From Malacoraja senta (lineage: Eukaryota), in the NCBI GenBank assembly GCA_038087875.1, contig CM075988.1, positions 27,406,001 to 27,466,000 of the forward strand: a stretch of 60,000 nucleotides of DNA. Reading direction: 5' to 3'. A model generated the notes under the pieces. The model searched no databases. It was not told where the DNA came from and worked only from the letters and a program-made list of their open reading frames with translations. Made by a program: the position numbers and the translations under genes. Each line of letters begins with the position of its first letter. The stretch's first letter is position 1. Shown here in pieces: positions 3,993 through 57,161 of the stretch.

Positions 3993-4088
3993 AAGGTAGA
4001 CACAAAATGCTGGAGTAATTCAGCAGGACAGGCAGCATCTCTGGAGAGAAGGAATGGGTGACGGTTCGGGTCGAGACCTTTCTTCAGC
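3993..4088 (-). mobile_element. Short Penelope-derived element (hammerhead core mutated)
   Basis: GTAGACACAAAATGCTGGAG...GACGGTTCGGGTCGAGACCTTTCTTCAG. Similar copies lie at ~20730-20823, ~39965-40045 and ~47535-47705. Confidence 0.7.
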
Positions 4089-4523
4089 TGCAAGATGACA
4101 TGGGTTGGCATGCTACAGTGCCAGCCAGCATCTGACCCCATTTTTAACACTAAGATTTGGATACATCAAATCATTTTGAGGACATTTTCCATCTCTACAC
4201 TAATCCATAAATCATGATCCATTACTTACCAAAGGAGGTCAATATAACACCTGCCCCATGCTGTCCCTGCACTTGAGAATGTTGTTAACTCACCTCTAAT
4301 GTCCTTCCAATATGTGGAACCACCTCACATCTGCCATTCTGTGGATCCAATTACTGAAAAGATGGGTATCCATGTATTTTAAATGTGCTAGGAATGCAGG
4401 GTCTTGACCTAAAATGCCGATTATTCCCTTGCCTCCACAGATACTGTTTGACCTGTTGAGTTCCGCCAGCAGTTTGCTTTCTTGCTCCAGATTCCAGCAT
4501 CTGCAACCTCTTTACATTTTTTT

Positions 4524-4815
4524 TTAGATACATTGCAGAAACAGGACCTTCGGCCCACCGAGTCCTCGCCAACCAGTGATCCCCGCACATTAACACTATC
4601 CTACTCACAAGGGAGAATTTACAATTTTACCAAGCCAATTAGCCTACAAACCAGTACATCTTTGGAGTGTGGGAAGAAACTGGAGCACCCGGAGAAAACC
4701 CACGCAGGTCACAGGGAGAATGTACAAACTCCATACAGACAGCACCCGTAGTCAGGATCGAACCCGGGTCTCTGGCGCTCTAAGGCAGCAGCTCTACCGC
4801 TGAGTCACCATGCCA
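4524..4815 (-). mobile_element. HE1-type SINE
   Basis: Full-length reverse-strand copy of the same consensus. Confidence 0.85.
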
Positions 4816-5629
4816 CACATTTTTGGTCTGTTGTATCTCCAGAGATTATTGGTGAGCATCTTGACCGGTGCCGCCAAAACAGGCAACACTTGTTCCTACT
4901 CAACTTGGCACCCTTGACTCAAACATAATTCCTGCTTGTTAATTATCTTCCATGTAATTATTGTTGGTTTGGAATTTTTCTCCTAGCATTTAATGAGGTA
5001 AATTTCTATCCCTTGTCTTTAGGTTTACTCCCGATTTATATTAATGAACACAATAAAAGGTTCTGCGACAACAACGAGAAGACAATATGCAAAGTAGAAT
5101 CATTAACAAATGTTTCTCAGCAGATTTAATTTCAAATGTGCTTCATGCTTCCTGTGGCAATAAAGTCAGAAAGTAATTTCTGGATAATTACTGAAATCCA
5201 TTAACAAAGTATCTCAGTGTAAATGTGGAATTAAAGGTCAACAAACTGATTCCGCTTCTGAAAACAATTATGCAACAATACTAGTTGCATTTGTGAATAT
5301 AAATTACCCCACAACCACCAGGGACCAGCTCCCCTCAAACACATCAGTTATCACAGCATGCAATAACCAGACAACTCGGTTCCTATTTTAGCCAGTAAAA
5401 AATAATAACTTTGTTTTTATGTCCAGTTTTAGTAGAAACTTAGTAGAAATTTAAATGAGTGAACTAAAAAAATCATTAAATAGTTTCAGCGGAGAAGTAG
5501 GCCATTTGGCCCATCAAGCCATGTATTCCTCTGCAAATATTTTATTGAGTGAAAAATATTTGCACTTATCCGCAGTAGAACTCTGATAATCTCTCACCTT
5601 AGGGAGTTTGAAGCCCTTTGTGGAGGCAA

Positions 5630-5944
5630 GGGCAGTATGGTGGTGCAGCAGTAGAGTTGCTGCCTTACAGCGCCAGAAACACGGGTTTGACCCTGGTTGT
5701 TGTCTGCACGGAGTTTGTACATTTTCCACATGACCTGCGTGGGTTTTCTCCAGCTGCTCCGGCTTCCTCCCACACTCCAAAGACATACAGGTTTGTAGGT
5801 TAATTGGCTTTGGTAAAATTGTAAATTGTCCCTAGTGTGTGATGGATAGTTTAAGTGTACAGGGGTCACTGGTCGGCGCAGACATGGTGGGACGAATGGC
5901 CTATTTCTGCGTTGTATCTATAAACTCTATTAAACTAAACTAAA
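5630..5944 (+). mobile_element. HE1-type tRNA-derived V-SINE
   Basis: A/B-box head (TGGTGCAGCAGTAG..GGGTTTGACCC), V-domain (CTGCGTGGGTTTTCTCC..CTCCGGCTTCCTCCCACACTCCAAAGAC), CR1-like tail with (TAAAC)n. Confidence 0.85.
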
Positions 5945-7559
5945 AGGGGTTGGTCAATGTTTTGAATCAAGACCAGGCATCTCTGGAGGTCTTGGCACAT
6001 TTCCCTGAGAAAGACTTGACCAACTATTTTCTCAGTTATTGTATCCACAGAACGGCAGATGTGAGGTTGTTCCACATGTTGGATAGATATATAAATTGTA
6101 CTTAATAACAACATCAAGTGCAGGGACTGTATTAGGCAGTTGGCAGATTTTCTGTACAGTAGGATTGTTTTTCTATTAATACCCCAACTCACTTTTAATT
6201 CTTTTTTTATATTTAATATTAGTAGAATATATATTTTTAAAGAGCCAGTTATGTTAAATCATCTTTCAAGAAAGGAGAGAGGTCACATTAATTAAAAACA
6301 AGCCTCCTAATATGCAGTAAACAAAGCAATGTTTTTGCACACTAAATATACATGCAATGCAACATTTAGGAGCATATTTCTTGAGCCAATTGCTGCAATT
6401 AATGGCCCTATAGTTTATATAGCAAACCTTCATAAGCCATGTAGATTGTGGAAGAGCTATGGAGTTTTAAAGAAATGATCAGAACTCCACCAGTTAGGTA
6501 AAAGTGAGCAAAGAAAGTTATTGAATCGAAAAAAAAGATGAGATATAAAAAGGGAAAAAGAAGAGTAAGAGTAGACGGAAAAAGGAGGGAAGAAAACCTT
6601 TATGCCATTTGGTCCTTTTTTCACAGAAGGAGGCAATTCAGCCCATCGGGTCCATGCTGGCTCACGGGGCAATCCCACTTCTCCTTTCCTTATTTCTCTA
6701 CAGCCTTGCAACTTATTATTTCCGTCACACATGACGATCCATTACGCTTTCATTCTCTTTTGCCATTAATCCACAGTAAGGGGTCGTTTGCAGCAGCCAA
6801 TAAAGCCCATCTTTGGTACATGAATGAAACAAATGGGGTTACGGAGAGAATGTGAAAACTGCGGACAGACACCATCCAGGGTAAGGGTCAAATCTGGTCC
6901 CTCGATCTGTGAAGCAGCAGTAGAAAATATGTCACTTTGTTGCAAATAGGCACAGTTACAAATGTCGGGCCAACACAACACCAACTTATACTGGCCCAAA
7001 CTACTCAGCTAATAAAGACATTAAGTACATTTGAATTCTAACCAACTTTGTTGTAGTGGGTTGAGGAGCAGAGGTCAAGATGTGGTATAGTGGAGAGCTT
7101 GACTGAGAGACCATAATGCAGGTGTCCTATGGTGTGTTCAGGGAGAGAAGAAATCTCCCATAAAGTAGAAGGACAAAAACTTGCCTAATATTGATTATTT
7201 GTATCCTGAACACTCTTTAGGTGAAGCACAGTTCAAAAACGTTATTCATATTCATTAGAAACAGAGACAGTATTTCCATTTGGCACAGGGTCAGGCCAGC
7301 TCTTATGTTAGTCTCAGTGCAAGTACAACTCAATCCAGGCAAGGTGCAGGAAATGACTGAACAAACGTTGCATACCTTCTGAGTAAATGCAGGGAGGAAG
7401 GAAAGGGAGAAGAGATTACGCTGCATAGCTTGCACTGAACTCTCCAGGTGCTCGGAAACCACTCAGCTAAAGTTAATAATGGATGGTGAGTAAAGGACGT
7501 CAATAACCAAAGGAAATGCAACTCATGAAGAACACACAAATATTTTATTGCCTTGAATC

Positions 7560-7747
7560 GACACAAAATGCTGGAGTATCCCAACAGGTCAGGCTGCATC
7601 TCTGAGGAAAAGGAATAGGTGATGTTTCAGGTCAGAACCCTTCTTCACTTGGGTCTAAAAAGGGGTTCCGACCTGAAACATCACCTATTCCTTTTCTCCA
7701 GAGATGCTCGCTGCCTGACCCGCTGAGTTACTCCAGCATTTTGTGTC
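7560..7747. mobile_element. Palindromic (head-to-head) Penelope-terminal-repeat element
   Basis: ~85-bp inverted arms, each with a degenerate hammerhead core. Confidence 0.75.
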
Positions 7748-10589
7748 TGTCTTGTTCTGACCACAAGTCAATGATATGAAACGTCAACTTTGCTTTTCTC
7801 CCAAGAAATGTGGCCTGACTTGCTGAATATTTCCACAATTTTCTATTTTTTTAATTTCCAACAGTCACACTATTTCGTTGCCTCTTCAATAATTCCATCA
7901 CCACAATATAACATTTGAATTTAAGTTCATTTATGACTTTGCCATTGACTTCCACAAGAAAACTTAACAACCCGTGAAATTGAAATGTTTAGAGTTGATT
8001 AGATTAACAATGTAATGAATAGTCTATTGCAATAGTCTATTGCAACAAATTGCAATATCCAAGAAACAGAGTGGCAAAATGACCAAGGACTGTAATCGCA
8101 GCATAGTTGATTTTGATCGCAGTTGAGTTAAGTCCTTGGGATTCAGCATAAAAAGGTTTGGGAAGGTTTTGGGAGGGAGGCCAAAGTGGTTGTTACCTAC
8201 AGAGGTAAAAACCTACACAGAGCTGCAGGGAAACACAATGCCTGTCCTTTTTAACTATGTACCTTGGGCTCCCCACAGCCTGAGTTCAGTGACAATCGCC
8301 TCTTCCCCATCTTGTCCAAACTATTGGGATGAGCCCAGAATATCTTTCAGAACCAGCTAATGCAATTACCATCAACCAGATGACCATGACCAGATGTCTT
8401 AGATGACAACCAACCTTCTGAGTCAACCAACTTTCATCAACAGTGCACCCTGTTAACATCCTGTTCCATCTGGTCATGGTCACCAAGAAGACAGGTTGGT
8501 CAGTCAGCTGCGCCATGTTCCTTAAAGACAATCAGCCCACTGATTTTGATTTAGCATTTGAGGCAAAACTGCAAGTGATGGTTTATTTTGAAGAGTTTCT
8601 TCTGGTGGAGTGGTCACGTTACTCTAACATTCCAAAAATGAGAAAGAACATTATTTTATTGACTTAGCATAAATGTAAAAAATATTGCATTCCCAAAATT
8701 CCCTGAGGCCCCGTGATCACTGTGCAATATTAATCTATCAGTACTTAGTATATTTACACAAAGCTCTTCTGTCAATTTTGACAAGGTGTACGATATATTT
8801 GTACATTGCGCTGGCATCACAAAATTCTAAGAAAAAAATTATTTAAGTAGGAGTGCATATTACTATTTGCAGCGTTAATTGCTCGTTCATGGTTGAAGTG
8901 GCACAGGTCAGCAAACAGTGCTGGTAGGAATAAGTGGAGGTTATTGAGACAAAGAATGGCAGGTTATCAATCAATACTGCGAGCCTACACACTGAATAGA
9001 AGCAACCTCGAGTAATCACTTAATGCCTTATTCCGCACATGACATAACAGTGTAACCCAATTTGACTCAAATAAAGAAGTCTGTGTCACAGAAACAATTA
9101 CAATTTATAATAGCTGTGGATTATCGAAACTGGCAACAGCACATAACTTCAGTCATTTGATAAATTTTTGAAGAAATTTCTAAAATCTAACATTAGAGAC
9201 AGCAAGACTGAACACTCTTGCCCAAAAATAACAGTGCATCCATTTTAGTGGCGTTAAAATAAGGATGCGGTTAGTATTAATGCTCCAATGAGCGACCTGC
9301 AAAATAAAATTGGTTAGAACGATATCCAAGTTGTTGTTGCCCAGAAAAACTAAAACAAGACCCTCATGGTTCCTGGTGGGATGTGCTTTAATTGAATACA
9401 GCCACAGACACTTTGTGTCCTTGGGCTAAGGCACAAAGAATAAAAGAAAGGCTCCTCTTATTGGAAGAAAACTCCCACAACTTTAACCTTATGAGCACAG
9501 GAGACACAGAGCCTCAAATCATCCAAGAACAGAGACCACAGGAGCTGTGCCAGGTATGCTACTAACAATGTTTGAATGGGATGACCACCTTCTTTTTGAT
9601 TTGATCTGATCTACAGTAGACTCCCTCGTTACCACATATGCACCATATATCATCACAAAGACATTTTGAACACAGCCTATAGAATGCAACTATCTTTTAT
9701 TCTGTCTATGCAGGAAAGCAAAGCGGTTCCCCCTCTGTTCAGCCTCATTAGGAGCGAAAAGAGTCGGAGGAACAGGAGGGACGAGGGAGAGGTGGAGGGG
9801 ATGATGTTATCACTGGGAGAGACATCAGGCTCTAACGGGCTACACCCTGGTAGCAGATGAAGGAAACTAGTACAGTGGTTCACAGGAGATGGAGTCCATG
9901 CATCCATATTGCCCAGGAGTACTCGGGTGAGGTCCCTGATGGGCATCTTTTCCTAAAGATGGAGATGCATGTTTTGATGGTCAGTGCATTGTTATACTTT
10001 AGTGACAAAATGCATGGAGGATTCCATCTGCAAGGTCTTGCACGGGATTGTGTGGAATCAGCAAACTCCATCGTCCATTCTTGAACCTCTGCACATATTT
10101 TGGAAGAGCCGGATTGGAATCCTGGCATGGACTCAGTGGGCCTAAGAGGCTGTTTCCGCGCTGTATCTTTAAACTAAACTAAACTAAATCAGAAAGGTAC
10201 AAGGTAGAGAATAGCAGGCAGGGAGTGGTGTTCAGGGATGCTCTTATGTTTTGTGGTGGTTGAGGTCACAGGCTAAACATTTTTGTGGCTGTAGCCCTGG
10301 TGAATGATGAGGGAGGTGTAGAATGGTGATGTTGAATGGAGTATTTTTGTAGGGTGATGGATGGAATGCCAAGTAAGCCGTTTTTGCAGATTATTGGTGG
10401 GGTTGGAAATGTTATGACAGTGGACTGTAATGTTAACAACAAACCCACCCCCCACCCTTTCTACCTCCCCCCTCCCTCCTCTAAGCCATATCTGGACTAG
10501 CACCTATTTCTCCCCTCCCTCTCCACCTACATTCCTTCCTCTAACTTCACAATTCACAACTCTTCAATCCTTTTGTCTCACACATGATC

Positions 10590-39960: not shown

Positions 39961-40054
39961 AAGTAAAGAAGGGTCTCGACTCGAAACGTCACCCATTCCT
40001 TCTCTCCGGAGTGCTGCTTGTCCCACTGAATTACTCCAGATTTTTTACAAGACA

Positions 40055-46202: not shown

Positions 46203-46365
46203 CTGATCTGAACTGGACTTTGATTGCCCTGCCATACAACTGGATTCCATTCAGCAAATCCTTCCCGTAATGGACCGACTCCTCGTGCTTAAAATTCACG
46301 AACGCGAACAGTTTTGATTTCCCGTCTTTATCCCGAGGAATTTTTACCCCCATCAGCGGGCCAGC
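46203..46365 (-). CDS. RBM7: RBM7 coding exon 2 (rest of RRM)
   Basis: Acceptor ..taccag|, 163 nt. Encodes AGPLMGVKIPRDKDGKSKLFAFVNFKHEESVHYGKDLLNGIQLYGRAIKVQFRS(G), including RNP1 FAFVNF. Donor G|gtaaga, phase 1. Confidence 0.95.
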
Positions 46366-46998
46366 CTGGTAAACAGAAAACGAATCTGTCAATTGTACAT
46401 TGTGAAACTGCGATTTGTGGGATGCGAGGGCTGCCTCAGAGACCTGGGTTTATGTGTCGTGCGGTTTTGTAGGTAGATTGGCCTCTAAAATTGCCCCGTT
46501 TGTGGAGGAAGTGAATGAGAAGTGGGATAACAGAACTAGTGTGATGATTGGAGTGGACTCGATGGTGGGTCGAATGATCTGTTCCCATTTGTATCTCTAA
46601 ACAAGGGTTAAAGTAGAGTTTTAAATAAAGTGGTTAAAGCCTGTACAACGATTTAATCTGCAGGAGCGAGAATAAAATCCCTCCTGGGAGCCTTTCGGAG
46701 TGTAAATAACCCAAATCCCGCCAGCAGGGCAACGACTCTGCGAGACGGCGTCTGCTTCTGATTAGATGGAAACTTTGCGGGAGTTTCGTTTAAACTGAGA
46801 GCGCCGGTCAAGTTCGCCGCAGAACGAGGGGAGGGGAGGGGATATATCTGAAATCAAGCAATTCGAGGGGGAGAAAAGGGACGAAGTCCACCAGAAAATA
46901 TTACAATCAGCCCGTCCCAGGGTGTCGGCACCTCGGGAGCACAAGGGACGCGGCCGGACGAGGCAGGCCGGCGCCTGAGCAACGACAGGCCTCGATAG

Positions 46999-47126
46999 AA
47001 ACAAAATGCTGGAGTAACTCAGCGGGACGGGCAGCATCTCTGGAGAGAAGGAATGGGTGACGTTTCGGGTGGTGACCCTTCTTCAGACTGAGAGTCAGGG
47101 GAGAGGGGGTGGATAGAGGGGAGAGA
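46999..47126 (-). mobile_element. Short Penelope-derived insertion with intact minimal hammerhead core, in RBM7 intron 1
   Basis: 12-bp TSD AGGCCTCGATAG (46987-46998, 47127-47138). Core CTGAAGA-A-GGGT-CACC-ACCC-GAAACGTC at 47086-47059. Confidence 0.8.
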
Positions 47127-47157
47127 AGGCCTCGATAGGCCGCCCGCCCTCCCTTAC

Positions 47158-47250
47158 CTGGAGGAACAGCTCGAACAGGAGCTCCTCCGTCACTTTAATG
47201 TCCAAGTTCCCGATAAACAGCGTCTTATTCGCATCGTCCGATACCCCCAT
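47158..47250 (-). CDS. RBM7: RBM7 coding exon 1
   Basis: GCAGCCACC-ATG-G Kozak context. Encodes MGVSDDANKTLFIGNLDIKVTEELLFELFLQ (RNP2 LFIGNL), matching the vertebrate RBM7 N-terminus (..RTLFVGNLETKVTEELLFELFHQ). Donor CAG|gtaagg. Confidence 0.95.
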
Positions 47251-47410
47251 GGTGGCTGCAGTCCCCTGCCCGCCCGGCACCCGAGGGTAAAACCAGCCCG
47301 TAAATCCGATTAAGGCGCCTTTTTAAAAGCCGCTTCTTCCCCTTCCTCAGGCCCCGCTTCCGCCCCGCTGGTTTCGTCACCCGGGTACACTTCCGCCCCG
47401 CAAGCCTCCA
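47251..47410 (-). promoter_or_regulatory. RBM7 CpG-rich promoter / 5' UTR
   Basis: CpG-dense. Two GGGGCGGAAG(C/T)G composite GC-box/ETS motifs on the minus strand (~47355-47367, ~47388-47400) lie directly upstream of the ATG exon. Confidence 0.7.
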
Positions 47411-49147
47411 TCTCAGACAACAAACTAAAGTCATCTTCTGTGGTATAAAAGTAATGCTCAATGACCTACTTCACAACTTTTTTGATAGTGTATTTATTAG
47501 TATTTAGAAACTGATATGGAATAGTAGTAGAAATAAGGAACTGCAGATGCTGGTTTACAAAAAAAGACACTCAGTTGGTCAGGCAGCATCTCTGAACAAA
47601 AATGGGATAGGTGACGTTTTGAGTCAGCACACCTACTTTAGACTGACATGCAACAAAATGAAGGTGGTTCGAAGAAGGGTCCCAACCCAAAACATCGCCT
47701 ATCCAGGAACAGAAACCAATTTGTAAAATAGTTTCAAATTATTTTTATTCTCTAGTGGTGGAAATGTTTCCCAACTACACTTCTGCAATGGATAATACAC
47801 GTGGTGATGGAGCCAAGTGAAAGATACCAGTAAAAAAACAGGGAGTACATCAGTTAGAGGCAAGATGATGAGTAAAATCTGAAATTAACAAAAGAAAATA
47901 AACTATGAATTCTGTAAATGTGAAAATCAAAAAGCTAATTATCTGAAAGAGTTGAAGTCAATGTTTAGCCTACAAGATTGTAATGTAAAAGATAATGCAG
48001 TCATAAGACAAGGTATTATTCTTCTGTCTGGAAAATAATGAGAATGACAAATCCAAAGAATCAGATAGATTCAATGCTCAGTGCTTTAACACACATAGGT
48101 GAGGATAATGCTGTTATACTTCTCTTTCAGCTTTACTTTTGTTGCGCTGACTGGATAGCACACAACAAAAGCTTTTCACTGTACCTCGGTACATGTGACA
48201 AACTAAACTAACTTCAGGAACCGCTCTGTTAGACATAAAATTATACATTATACTATTCTTTAGGAAAGAGGGATAAAACTGAATTCTAACAGCGATTTAG
48301 GTGACAAGATGGAGATGCAAAGAAACTAAGATATTAGGCATATTTGAAACAGTCAGACAGATTTTGTAAACAAAAACACACTTCAGTTTGTTGCTTTGCT
48401 GTATATTATATCCAATCTTGAATGATGGTTGACATATAGTCAACTAACCAGAAGAAACTCCAAAAACATCTCCATCCTCAACATAGCAGAGCTAACAGCA
48501 AGGCTGAATTATTCAGAACCACGTTTCGGCAGAAGTGAACACCAGATGATTTATCTTGACTTCTTCCCGAGATTCCCATCATCACAGAAGTTGGCTTCCA
48601 TTCACTCCAAGAAACCGCTGAAAGCACTCAATGCAGCAAAACATATGGGACCAGAGAGCATCCTGGGCGTAGTACTGAAATTTACACTTAAAAACTAGCT
48701 GCGTCTCAAGCCAAGGTGTCATTGTACACTTACAACATTGGTATCCACTCGAGGTGGAAAAACTACCCAGGCATGACCTATTCAGAAAATGCACGACAAA
48801 TCCAATCCAGCTAATTGCCAACAACTCGGTCTACTCTCAATGATCAGTAACATGATGAAAGATACCAAAGACAATATTATCAAACAACACTTACTCACCG
48901 ATAACTCAAATTAGAGATTAACCAGCAGGTTTCATCAGAACCATTGGGCTCCAGACCACATCACAGTCTTGGTTAAAATGTGGATCAAATAACTGAATTC
49001 CAAAGGTGAGCTGAGAGTGAAAGTGAATCAAATTAATGTCTTTTAATCTAAATGTGGACATCGAGCCCTGCTAAAGCTGAAGTCAATAGGATTCAAAGAA
49101 AAAAAACATTCCAGTGGTTGAAAGTTTAAAAGAAACCACACATAAAG

Positions 49148-49404: not shown

Positions 49405-49625
49405 CAGCGTAGGAAGGAACTGTAGATGCTGGTTTACACCAAAGATAGACACAAAATTAACATTAACTCAGGGGGGTCAGGCAGTATCACTGGAGAAAAG
49501 GAATAAGTGGTTTCAGGTTAAGACCCTTCTTCAGACCGAGTCTGAAGGATTGCAACCTGAAACATCACCTATTCCTTTTCTCCAGAGATGCTGCCTGACC
49601 CACTGGATTACTCCAGCATTGTGTC
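49405..49625. mobile_element. Palindromic Penelope-derived insertion
   Basis: 12-bp TSD AACCTTGACATT (49393-49404, 49626-49637). Two head-to-head degenerate hammerhead cores. Confidence 0.72.
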
Positions 49626-54300: not shown

Positions 54301-55429
54301 TGTTCCATATATGACTCAGCAAATAATACCAGGGCCTGGGTACATCATATAGACAAACAAGGCCTTCTGTTCGACCCCAGTCTGCTAATTTAACAAAGGT
54401 AAATCAGAAATAGGATGATGCACATCCCATCAGTGAATTTGTCAGTGAGAAGAAAGTGAGCCACAGCTATTTCTCATGAATTCCAAAGATTTAAATGCCA
54501 AGAATGATTTGCCTGCATCTTATCCCGAACTGGTTAAATACGCTGCAAGCTCAAAATTCATATGCTACGGAAGGCAACAAAAGTTTCTCAAACATTACCA
54601 AGTACTCCCAGTCGCCGCAAAAGACGAGATAAAATTGATAAGACAAGTAATCAAAAATAAATTTTAAAAAGACATATAGCCATTTTTCCTGGACCAGCCT
54701 CATCATCTAGAATCACCACAATAAGGCCCAGGGCTTCCACAAGTATTTGGGCTGATACTTGAAGCTGCCTTCGCTTTAACTCACTCCAGTTGAGGGCAAG
54801 GTTTACCTGGTAATGAGTTACTGGCAATGTAATTTAAAAAAAATCCTGCTCCAGGAACTCATTGGCCAACTGACAGTAGACAAATCTAGATTCTTGATTA
54901 GTAAGGGTGTGGGAGAGGCAGGGGAATGGGGTTGAGAGTGAAAGGTAGATCAGCCGTGATTTAATAATGGAGTAGACTCGATGGGCCAATTCAGCTCCTA
55001 TGACTTATGAAGCTAGAACTGGAGATTCTGTCGAATCGGTTGTGAGTAATGAGTTTTCAAATATCTTGCTTTAAACATACGAAATGAATATAACTTAAAT
55101 GTTAATAATGAAACGGTAAACATGAAGGTAAAGCAAAATATTTTTTAAAACCTACCTTGTGGTTGGTCACCAATCTTGGATCCCCAGTAAATCAATGAGA
55201 TCTTGGTTCTCCTCGAGTCTATAACAACCGATTACACCAGCAAAGATAAAAGGTGAACTACTGGATGAGGCAGCGTCTCTGGAGGGAAATGTTCAGCCGA
55301 CGGTTCGGGTCCAGACCTTGCAGGTGGATTCCAGGCAGTTTCCCTCCACTGATGCTGCCTGGCCTGCAAGTTGCTCCAGCAAATCTCCTGCTTTTTGCTC
55401 CGGGTCCCAGCATCCGCAGTCTCTTGCCC

Positions 55430-56110
55430 AAGCGTCCAGTCTGACGCCGCTGCATCCCAAGCGGTGGATCCAACTGATAGAAGGTGGTCGGTAAGTCCCG
55501 GACTTGGTGCACTTCGAGAGGATGGGCGGTGGCAGCTTTGTCGGTGTCAATGAACTGCGATTTATTCTGCACCAAGGCTCGACCACGGCGACAACATCCA
55601 TCCATCTCTCTATATATCTATCTATCTCACCGTACAACAGATGAGGGAGAACCGACAGGACAACTGCAGCGTAAATGGGCATCTACAGTCAATATTAAAC
55701 AAGGCGCATCCTCACTAAATGAAGTGGGAGGATAAACAAGCCGTGGCTCAGCGCCAGGCGGAGCTCGGGTCGGCGCCCGCCTTTACGACATGTTTTTGCG
55801 ACAATGCGGGAGTGGGCGAGGTCTGTTGCTAGGCAATGCCGGAGGGCCGATTGGCCGCCATGTTGATGCTGCGTGGTCACAGGGCCGCTCTTAAAGCTAA
55901 GAGCCTACCCCTTGTCACCGCCACTCAGCTTTCCCGCCATTTCACCAACCGCTCACTCGGTGGATTCGCGCCCGCTGTCGGCCGTCCTCACTCGCCTTCT
56001 CCTCATCTACCCTTCGTCTATGGACCGGCAGCTCGGCTGATGCCCCGACGTTTGACTACCATGGCAGCACAGGACATGGCAAAGAGGATGGTCTGGGTGG
56101 ACCTGGAGGT
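55430..56110. promoter_or_regulatory. REXO2 CpG island / probable bidirectional promoter
   Basis: High CpG density, GC boxes, inverted CCAAT (ATTGG 55850-55854) and a YY1-type GCCGCCATGTTG at 55854-55865. Confidence 0.65.
55836..56108 (+). CDS. REXO2: REXO2 (oligoribonuclease) coding exon 1, with putative mitochondrial presequence
   Basis: Ends MAAQDMAKRMVWVDLE (ExoI motif; human MAAGESMAQRMVWVDLE), donor GAG|gtaact. The start is uncertain: in-frame ATGs include 55836, 55860 (gccgccATG) and 56061 (accATGg). Confidence 0.9.
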
Positions 56111-57161
56111 AACTTGCTTTGCTGCACGAAAACTCTTTCAATGCGAAATCATTCGATCTGCTTGGAGTCTGGAAAGCGAAAAGCAAAGTTTCATCATCCA
56201 CTTAAGTGCATAATTTGTAAAAATAATATTTATTGTACCCCGAGCTAGTAATGTCATTGTTTCATTAATGTGGCTTTTCTTGAATCGTCCCGTGTTTTAA
56301 TTAACCCACATTTAGGCACTCGTATTTGCCTTTGCTGTTTTTATTGACGATTTTTTGCATTTAATCTAATGGGGGAAATAAATTTATCTTTTTGCAGAGG
56401 AGGGCTAAAGCTAAAACAGTACTGTATATAGTGTGACATTTGTTTAATTCCCCATTTTCGCAGTAGTAAAATCATAATGTATTTACTATAAGTTGTCTTA
56501 AATATGTTGAACTTCAATTCAACAGGGATTTAAATGAGGGAAGATTATTACGCTTGGAGCTGTTGTCCTGCATATATAATGTGCCAGTGATATAAATTCT
56601 CCAAGTTACTTTTATTGCTGGTGAACTGTTTCGTTGATTATGGAGGTGTTCGATGTAAAATGGCCACAGGGACATTATTAAAAAGAACTGGGATATGAAA
56701 GTGAATTAAGAGGGAGTTAAACCTAAAGGTCCAAGGTATCTGCCCCAGTTGGAAAAGTTTAGTGATGTACACAGCTGGGTAATTAATGAAGGAGATACAC
56801 ATGAGAAGTATCTATCCAGTTAAAATTGGTTTATGTACTGAGAATGTAAAATTGAGTAAGCATATTTTGCTCTACACTGCAAATGTAACATTGTCATGTT
56901 GTACTTAATGCTGCAAATCATGCTAATAATTAAAGGATTAATATGATTTTTTTTTGCTGTGGAGCTTGTGAAAAAGGATTACATCCTTGGAAGCATTTTT
57001 CTCTCATGCATGTAAAAACAAAGCAAGATCATTCTAGGTTATCAAAGGAGTATTACACTTTCTAAAGATACTCATTGCCAATGTGGTAGTACCAGGCTTT
57101 TACTATCCATCAAATCTTAATTTGTACTGTGGTCTGATAATTTCCTTTTTTACCCAAATAG

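Follow-up and report, generated by a model that had tools for sequence, protein, structure and literature searches.

A solo Penelope-like element end bearing a minimal hammerhead in RBM7 intron 1, most likely silent

Among the described systems, the closest to the locus reported here are the minimal hammerhead ribozymes (min-HHRs) of Penelope-like elements (PLEs). In the available part of the work of Cervera and De la Pena (2014, PMC4209133), min-HHR monomers showed no cleavage and dimers cleaved little, and a helix I of 2 bp occurs in the PLE ribozymes of D. virilis. In the study of Frangieh et al. (2024, PMC11167929), the PAc ribozyme of Anolis required the protein of the element for cleavage, and none of the anole RNA-seq reads had an end at the PAc cut site. 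The insert analyzed here lies in a window of 60,000 nucleotides (the whole stretch of DNA that was analyzed) and is another member of this already known PLE min-HHR kind. Altogether, sequence comparisons and folding predictions argue with good confidence for a real, old, solo Penelope pLTR stub carrying a textbook minimal hammerhead that is most likely silent. In the literature searched, no paper joined RBM7 and a hammerhead. Weaker searches for this Penelope family in skates or cartilaginous fish found no report on it among the papers listed, and the supplementary alignments of Cervera 2014 may include cartilaginous-fish motifs.

The insert and its host gene

RBM7 is a subunit of NEXT, the complex directing RNAs to the exosome. 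In the window, the gene lies on the minus strand, with coding exon 1 (start of the RRM) at 47158 to 47250 and exon 2 starting at 46365, and the top matches are RBM7 structures. Exon 2 matched RBM7 with an E value of 2.9e-22 and RBM11 with 1.5e-12; both exons match RBM7, far ahead of RBM11, which confirms RBM7 intron 1 as the host named in the original prediction. This intron spans 46366 to 47157 on the minus strand (792 nt, GT..AG, donor CAG/GTAAGG), and a CpG island surrounds the RBM7 start (46700 to 47420), with observed/expected CpG ratios of 1.05 and 1.00 on two flanks versus 0.40 for the window. Across RBM7 intron 1, insert included, there is no GTRAG donor-like site besides the true donor, and the intron contains a single ATTAAA hexamer, on the minus strand at 46657, downstream of the insert. 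Another contig duplicates the whole RBM7 locus with 2 differences in 3,112 nt, both outside the insert, and is probably the other haplotype. Elsewhere in the window, a probable REXO2 coding exon at 55833 to 56210 on the plus strand (weak match, E 0.19) points away from RBM7; its position near 56 kb fits the neighborhood expected for RBM7. Two stop-free tandem arrays of a similar repeat unit lie in opposite orientations at 33.4 to 34.1 kb and 50.2 to 51.5 kb.

Within the intron, the 12-nt direct repeat AGGCCTCGATAG is present at 46987 to 46998 and at 47127 to 47138, with 100% identity between the copies and 128 nt between them (46999 to 47126). The predicted lengths of both repeat and insertion are therefore exact, and the start of the proximal copy after 19 intron nt from the exon 1 donor, as well as the sense orientation of the insert on the RBM7 pre-mRNA strand, was upheld. 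The repeat is best read as a target-site duplication (TSD), a label that rests on the sequence and on the behavior of the family, since no empty site was seen in the 6 relatives. Along the pre-mRNA (all features on the minus strand), the proximal copy, an exact repeat consistent with the excess of TSDs in the family, is followed by a pyrimidine-rich 5′ junction segment (47111 to 47126), which may be diverged family sequence, junction filler, or a templated copy of the target; a second exact genomic copy of this segment is absent except on the duplicate contig, organism D resembles the target there, and one family copy (L135) is also similar. Then come the pLTR upstream of the ribozyme, common to a family variant (47089 to 47110), the minimal type I hammerhead recognized by a sequence descriptor (47057 to 47088), and the 3′ part of the pLTR, which terminates at the family's short, tail-less end (46999 to 47056). 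The first 5 letters of the distal repeat copy on the RNA strand (CTATC) also equal the family's 3′ end; as a consequence the 3′ boundary of the insert is ambiguous by 5 nt, and the match may reflect either microhomology priming or chance. The RBM7 copy is a solo, tail-less end without an inverted partner, and it differs from the commonest family letters at 4 of ~95 positions, two of which fall within the loop of helix II.

On the pre-mRNA strand, the motif reads CUGAAGA-A-GGGUcaccACCC-GAAA-CGUC, with C3 at 47086 and C17 at 47059. Helix I is 2 bp long (47088-47087 paired with 47058-47057). Its 5′ strand is followed by the core (47086-47080), one additional A (47079), helix II, whose CACC loop is rare (47078-47067), GAAA (47066-47063), and the ACGU palindrome (47063-47060). 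The intact catalytic core and helix II and the loopless palindrome acting as helix III, all read correctly in the original prediction, are upheld on this strand, and the predicted cleavage position, 47059/47058, agrees with C17. The locus displays the PLE min-HHR signature in its CUGANGA and GAAA..UH core, in the extra nucleotide before 10.1, in G10.1-C11.1, and in a palindromic 15.2-16.2 without loop 3 (ACGU), but not in helix I, which spans 4 to 5 bp in most consensus families. The caution that helix I had only about 2 bp was correct, although it reflects the family norm rather than damage to this copy: of 90 intact copies, 64 have 2 bp and a single one has 4 bp. An Rfam scan of 44 to 50 kb returned 7 matches at E up to 10, with no hammerhead and none at the gathering score; the hammerhead at RBM7 was called by the descriptor, not by Rfam.

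The comparison with relatives covered 8 of 24 sequencing runs and 6 relatives. The insert is present in 7 of 7 organisms counting its own: contigs of organisms B, C, and E enter it from both flanks, with 9 to 14 substitutions in ~320 nt of the left flank, and contigs of D, F, and G carry it at the right junction. Of the two outcomes envisaged for related species, presence was found in 6 of 6 and an empty site in 0 of 6. A loss of 2 nt immediately upstream of helix I is common to F and G, with G in addition lacking the catalytic C3 (one contig, depth 34.7). The core was readable in 2 of the 6 relatives, with its 5′ half intact in F and broken in G, and was unreadable in B, C, D, and E because other family copies swamp the difference tables; with C3 lost in G, on one contig, the core at the orthologous site is not conserved across the two readable relatives, as it would be in a domesticated ribozyme. 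In a second sample of the insert's own organism, depth was low and the right junction fell in a gap. At 47432, upstream of RBM7, 27 additional letters are present in B, C, E, and G and 4 in F, suggesting a likely loss in the window's lineage.

A very abundant Penelope-like family

The Penelope origin and min-HHR identity originally proposed are supported by a longer copy, in which the family sequence lies directly behind an open reading frame with HTH_animal/GIY-YIG look-alikes, and by the fit of the motif to Cervera 2014. Longer family copies share up to 1.1 kb upstream. In sequence L055 (7137-8330, minus strand), about 100 nt separate the end of an open frame of 397 aa from the hammerhead copy that follows it. 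The Atlas clusters nearest to this frame (score 0.96) contain HTH_animal in 98%, 31%, and 78% of members; two of the three best clusters also contain GIY-YIG, in 26% and 16% of members, and RVT_1 is found in part. A Pfam scan of the 397-aa frame gave no family. The sequence accordingly adjoins an RT/GIY-YIG open reading frame, as a pLTR does, an assignment made through Atlas look-alikes and without Pfam support. Adjoining this frame, open frames at L055:8852-9723 (plus strand) look like what is presumably a Tc1/mariner transposase fragment. Many small contigs (L014-L030) share a near-identical unit of several kilobases containing 3 to 5 hammerhead repeats, which suggests an amplified larger repeat. 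At G000:C1:154.70-155.08 Mb, LDL-receptor class A exons form a cluster in which blocks recur about four times with the same scores, reflecting either recent tandem duplication or an assembly artifact.

The window holds 20 family copies by blastn and 27 by profile. Three gene-body samples of 998, 800, and 90 kb contained 410, 277, and 54 copies, that is, 741 copies in 1.888 Mb or 1 per 2.5 kb. Extrapolation to the 1.94-Gb assembly gives about 760,000 copies if the samples are typical, a rough estimate because the samples were picked as gene bodies. Two 3′ ends exist in the family, with a ~36-nt tail in 76 of 196 copies and none in 120 of 196. Flanking repeats of at least 12 nt were found for 27 of 265 copies, including a few family-internal repeats that are not TSDs, versus 1.9 in shuffles, and they reach up to 17 nt in family copies. 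An inverted partner lies within 200 nt of 308 of 687 sampled copies. Of 410 copies, only 8 have their start no more than 2 nt from the cut site. Fold-back pairs of opposite-strand Penelope ends occur in the window at 1028-1154, 7564-7743, 47565-47704, 49464-49623, and 55263-55382. Helix II has 5 bp in most family copies and 4 bp in the RBM7 copy.

An intact core was recognized by the descriptor in 96 of the 741 copies. With about 13% of all copies equally intact, an intact sense copy in some intron would be expected many thousand times. CpG decay is visible across 109 copies: 71% retain G12 and 74%/72% retain C15.2/G16.2, compared with 93 to 97% retention for the non-CpG core purines. The core of the RBM7 copy is thus likely intact because its CpGs sit in a CpG island and were spared the decay seen elsewhere, without selection on catalysis.

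Capacity to cleave and strand orientation

In folding predictions, the probability of helix I was <0.01 and that of helix II 0.02 to 0.30 in 9 of 9 sequence contexts, and in 6 of 9 contexts GGGU was predicted to pair instead with the ACCC that follows the cut site (probability 0.4 to 0.7). By prediction, therefore, the RBM7 copy does not adopt the active monomer fold of a domesticated ribozyme. A dimer with helices II and III, with its helix I left out, reached -12.5 kcal/mol versus -23.3 kcal/mol for the best cofold MFE. Within the RBM7 coding span, no second sense copy is present; the sole other copy (39964-40045) is antisense and broken. The closest copy on the same strand (47645-47565) lies upstream of the start codon and has degenerated. 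Mutual information across 109 ungapped copies highlighted subfamily-linked columns and no compensatory pairs in helix I or II, giving no grounds for a longer helix I. The true activity may be higher than folding models suggest, because D. virilis PLEs have a 2-bp helix I and PAc cleaves with its protein. We infer from these models that the RBM7 hammerhead is likely inactive.

The insert is the short end, tail-less and carrying the ribozyme, of a highly abundant Penelope-like family. In the model that we propose, it likely entered RBM7 intron 1 before the split from the six relatives and is likely catalytically silent and neutral there. The element's endonuclease would have nicked the target in RBM7 intron 1, and insertion would likely have followed by target-primed reverse transcription. 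The latter would have begun at the upstream one of two internal start sites and halted ~25 to 40 nt past the ribozyme, and repair would have produced the 12-nt duplication. Helix II is predicted to lose its 5′ strand in the pre-mRNA to pairing with the ACCC just after the cut site, making the active fold rare. Without a partner copy or the element protein, no cutting would then be expected during the brief existence of an intron of 0.8 kb. The influence first suggested for this insert, on splicing or decay of the RBM7 pre-mRNA, is not supported, given the lack of a cis dimer partner in the coding span, the predicted fold, the missing C3 in one relative, and the absence of an overall depletion of sense copies among intact ones.

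This last point comes from strand orientation across gene bodies, since intact copies able to cut pre-mRNA would be expected to be rare in sense. The strand of each gene was taken from runs of same-strand Pfam exon matches, which may include nested genes, and two large genes made up most of the sequence. The sense:antisense counts in gene bodies were 368:373 for all copies, 49:47 for intact copies, and 36:39 for intact copies with a helix I of at least 2 bp. The strictest class (ACGUC with a Watson-Crick 2-bp helix I, which includes the RBM7 copy), one among about ten classes and selected after sample 1 had been seen, gave 5:12, 2:8, and 1:1 in the three samples, the third being a 90-kb sample with only 2 strict-class copies. 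Pooled, this amounts to 8:21 (p = 0.024), with 3:9 held out (p = 0.15) and 2:8 in the replicate fixed beforehand (p = 0.11). We treat this deficit, which could reflect a selective disadvantage of cleaving copies in sense, as a hint; it counts against our model, and so does the persistence of the insertion, in all 7 organisms, at a sensitive site. The catalytic positions showed no difference by orientation, the sole core position at p < 0.05, A9, being better kept in sense, and orientation differences fell mostly at subfamily markers. In an alignment-based comparison of full-length subfamily A copies, core and helix I were intact in 11 of 81 sense versus 16 of 98 antisense copies (p = 0.68), a ratio of 0.83 compared with a median of 0.81 for control position sets, i.e., no ribozyme-specific deficit. 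The sense copies of subfamily A carried slightly more downstream differences (4.1 versus 3.5).

The strict-class imbalance is among the points in favor of the alternative of low-level cleavage aided by the element protein or by a second family transcript in trans, in which cutting would incidentally hit a minor fraction of RBM7 pre-mRNA with no selected function. The PAc ribozyme is indeed assisted by a protein (PMC11167929), the family is abundant enough to supply partners, and an engineered intronic hammerhead reduced mRNA up to 20-fold in zebrafish, in the portion of that test accessible here, where less optimized ribozymes stayed below 3-fold. The RBM7 copy lacks the tail and the downstream RNA that served PAc as template, a requirement that may by analogy apply here; moreover, the dimer fold is about 11 kcal/mol less stable than the MFE, anole RNA-seq gave no reads stopping at the PAc cut site (PMC11167929), and the subfamily A control is without a ribozyme-specific deficit. 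We consider such cleavage improbable, and still more so its general form, in which hammerheads with a 2-bp helix I cut host pre-mRNAs with a Penelope protein or a second transcript, explaining the 8:21 counts and making the RBM7 copy a retroelement-responsive switch. If it were true, expression of Penelope would bring about cleavage of the pre-mRNA encoding a NEXT subunit, NEXT itself being the complex that directs such RNAs to the exosome, and a retroelement ribozyme would be linked to the control of nuclear RNA decay.

Still less probable is the co-option of the copy as a regulator, by which cleavage ~100 nt past the donor would route RBM7 pre-mRNA to decay and thereby tune NEXT; the sense orientation, the intact core, the donor-adjacent position, and the retention in 7 of 7 organisms would suit it, but C3 is missing in organism G, 96 of 741 copies are equally intact, the CpG island likely accounts for the intact core, and the copy has neither a cis partner nor a favorable predicted fold. 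Least credible of all is a splicing effect without catalysis, through the C/U-rich 5′ part near the donor (the pyrimidine tract starts 31 nt after it) or through looping out of the insert by pairing of the repeat copies, which the MFE fold of 46987-47136 does join over 7 bp via the AGGCCT palindrome, but this fold is no better than shuffles (z -0.18) and the insert is without a cryptic GTRAG donor.

Under our preferred model of a silent and neutral stub, the RBM7 insert is one among an estimated several hundred thousand Penelope stubs and a useful shared-insertion marker for related species. With tens of thousands of intact minimal hammerheads in this one genome, counts of sense and antisense copies in introns could indicate whether host RNA is cut in vivo.

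Comparison with known systems

The metazoan PLE min-HHRs of PMC4209133 differ from the RBM7 copy in the length of both helices, as far as the available text of that source goes: helix II has 7 to 8 bp in S. mansoni versus 4 bp here, and helix I has 4 to 5 bp versus 2 bp here, the latter as in D. virilis. The copy numbers given there for coelacanth and Xenopus, 4,000 to 9,000, are far below that of the skate family, with the reservation that counting methods differ. Features shared with PAc, a Poseidon PLE of Anolis (PMC11167929), are a hammerhead near the element end, two 3′ ends depending on an optional tail, and, in the longer copy of the skate family, an EN at the C terminus of the open reading frame. 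The two reverse-transcription starts of PAc (PMC11167929) match the two 3′ ends of the family. PAc favors AT-rich targets and uses homology-free priming, whereas the RBM7 target lies in a GC-rich CpG island and matches the element end over 5 nt.

In the accessible portion of the work on EN+ Penelope elements of Adineta (PMC3846280), TSDs are variable with 8 to 10 bp, compared with 12 at RBM7 and up to 17 in the family, and the part of PMC8557442 at hand contains nothing on TSDs. Solo and inverted pLTRs are described for Adineta (PMC3846280, same portion) as in the skate family, to which the RBM7 copy contributes a solo stub, its empty site not found among the 6 relatives. Non-LTR retrozymes, according to the available text of bioRxiv 10.64898/2026.07.22.740005, are likewise PLE-derived, non-coding, and equipped with a type I hammerhead, but they form tandem units with at least two hammerheads, whereas a single copy lies between the RBM7 repeats.

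With the CPEB3 intronic self-cleaving ribozyme, in the material accessible on it, the RBM7 copy shares its sense orientation within an intron of a protein-coding gene. The amniote RECK hammerhead is also a host intronic self-cleaving ribozyme, in sense in an intron of a protein-coding gene, and both the CPEB3 and RECK ribozymes are single-copy, conserved, and fold as monomers. Unlike these two, the RBM7 copy is one among hundreds of thousands, is broken in one relative, and is predicted not to fold.
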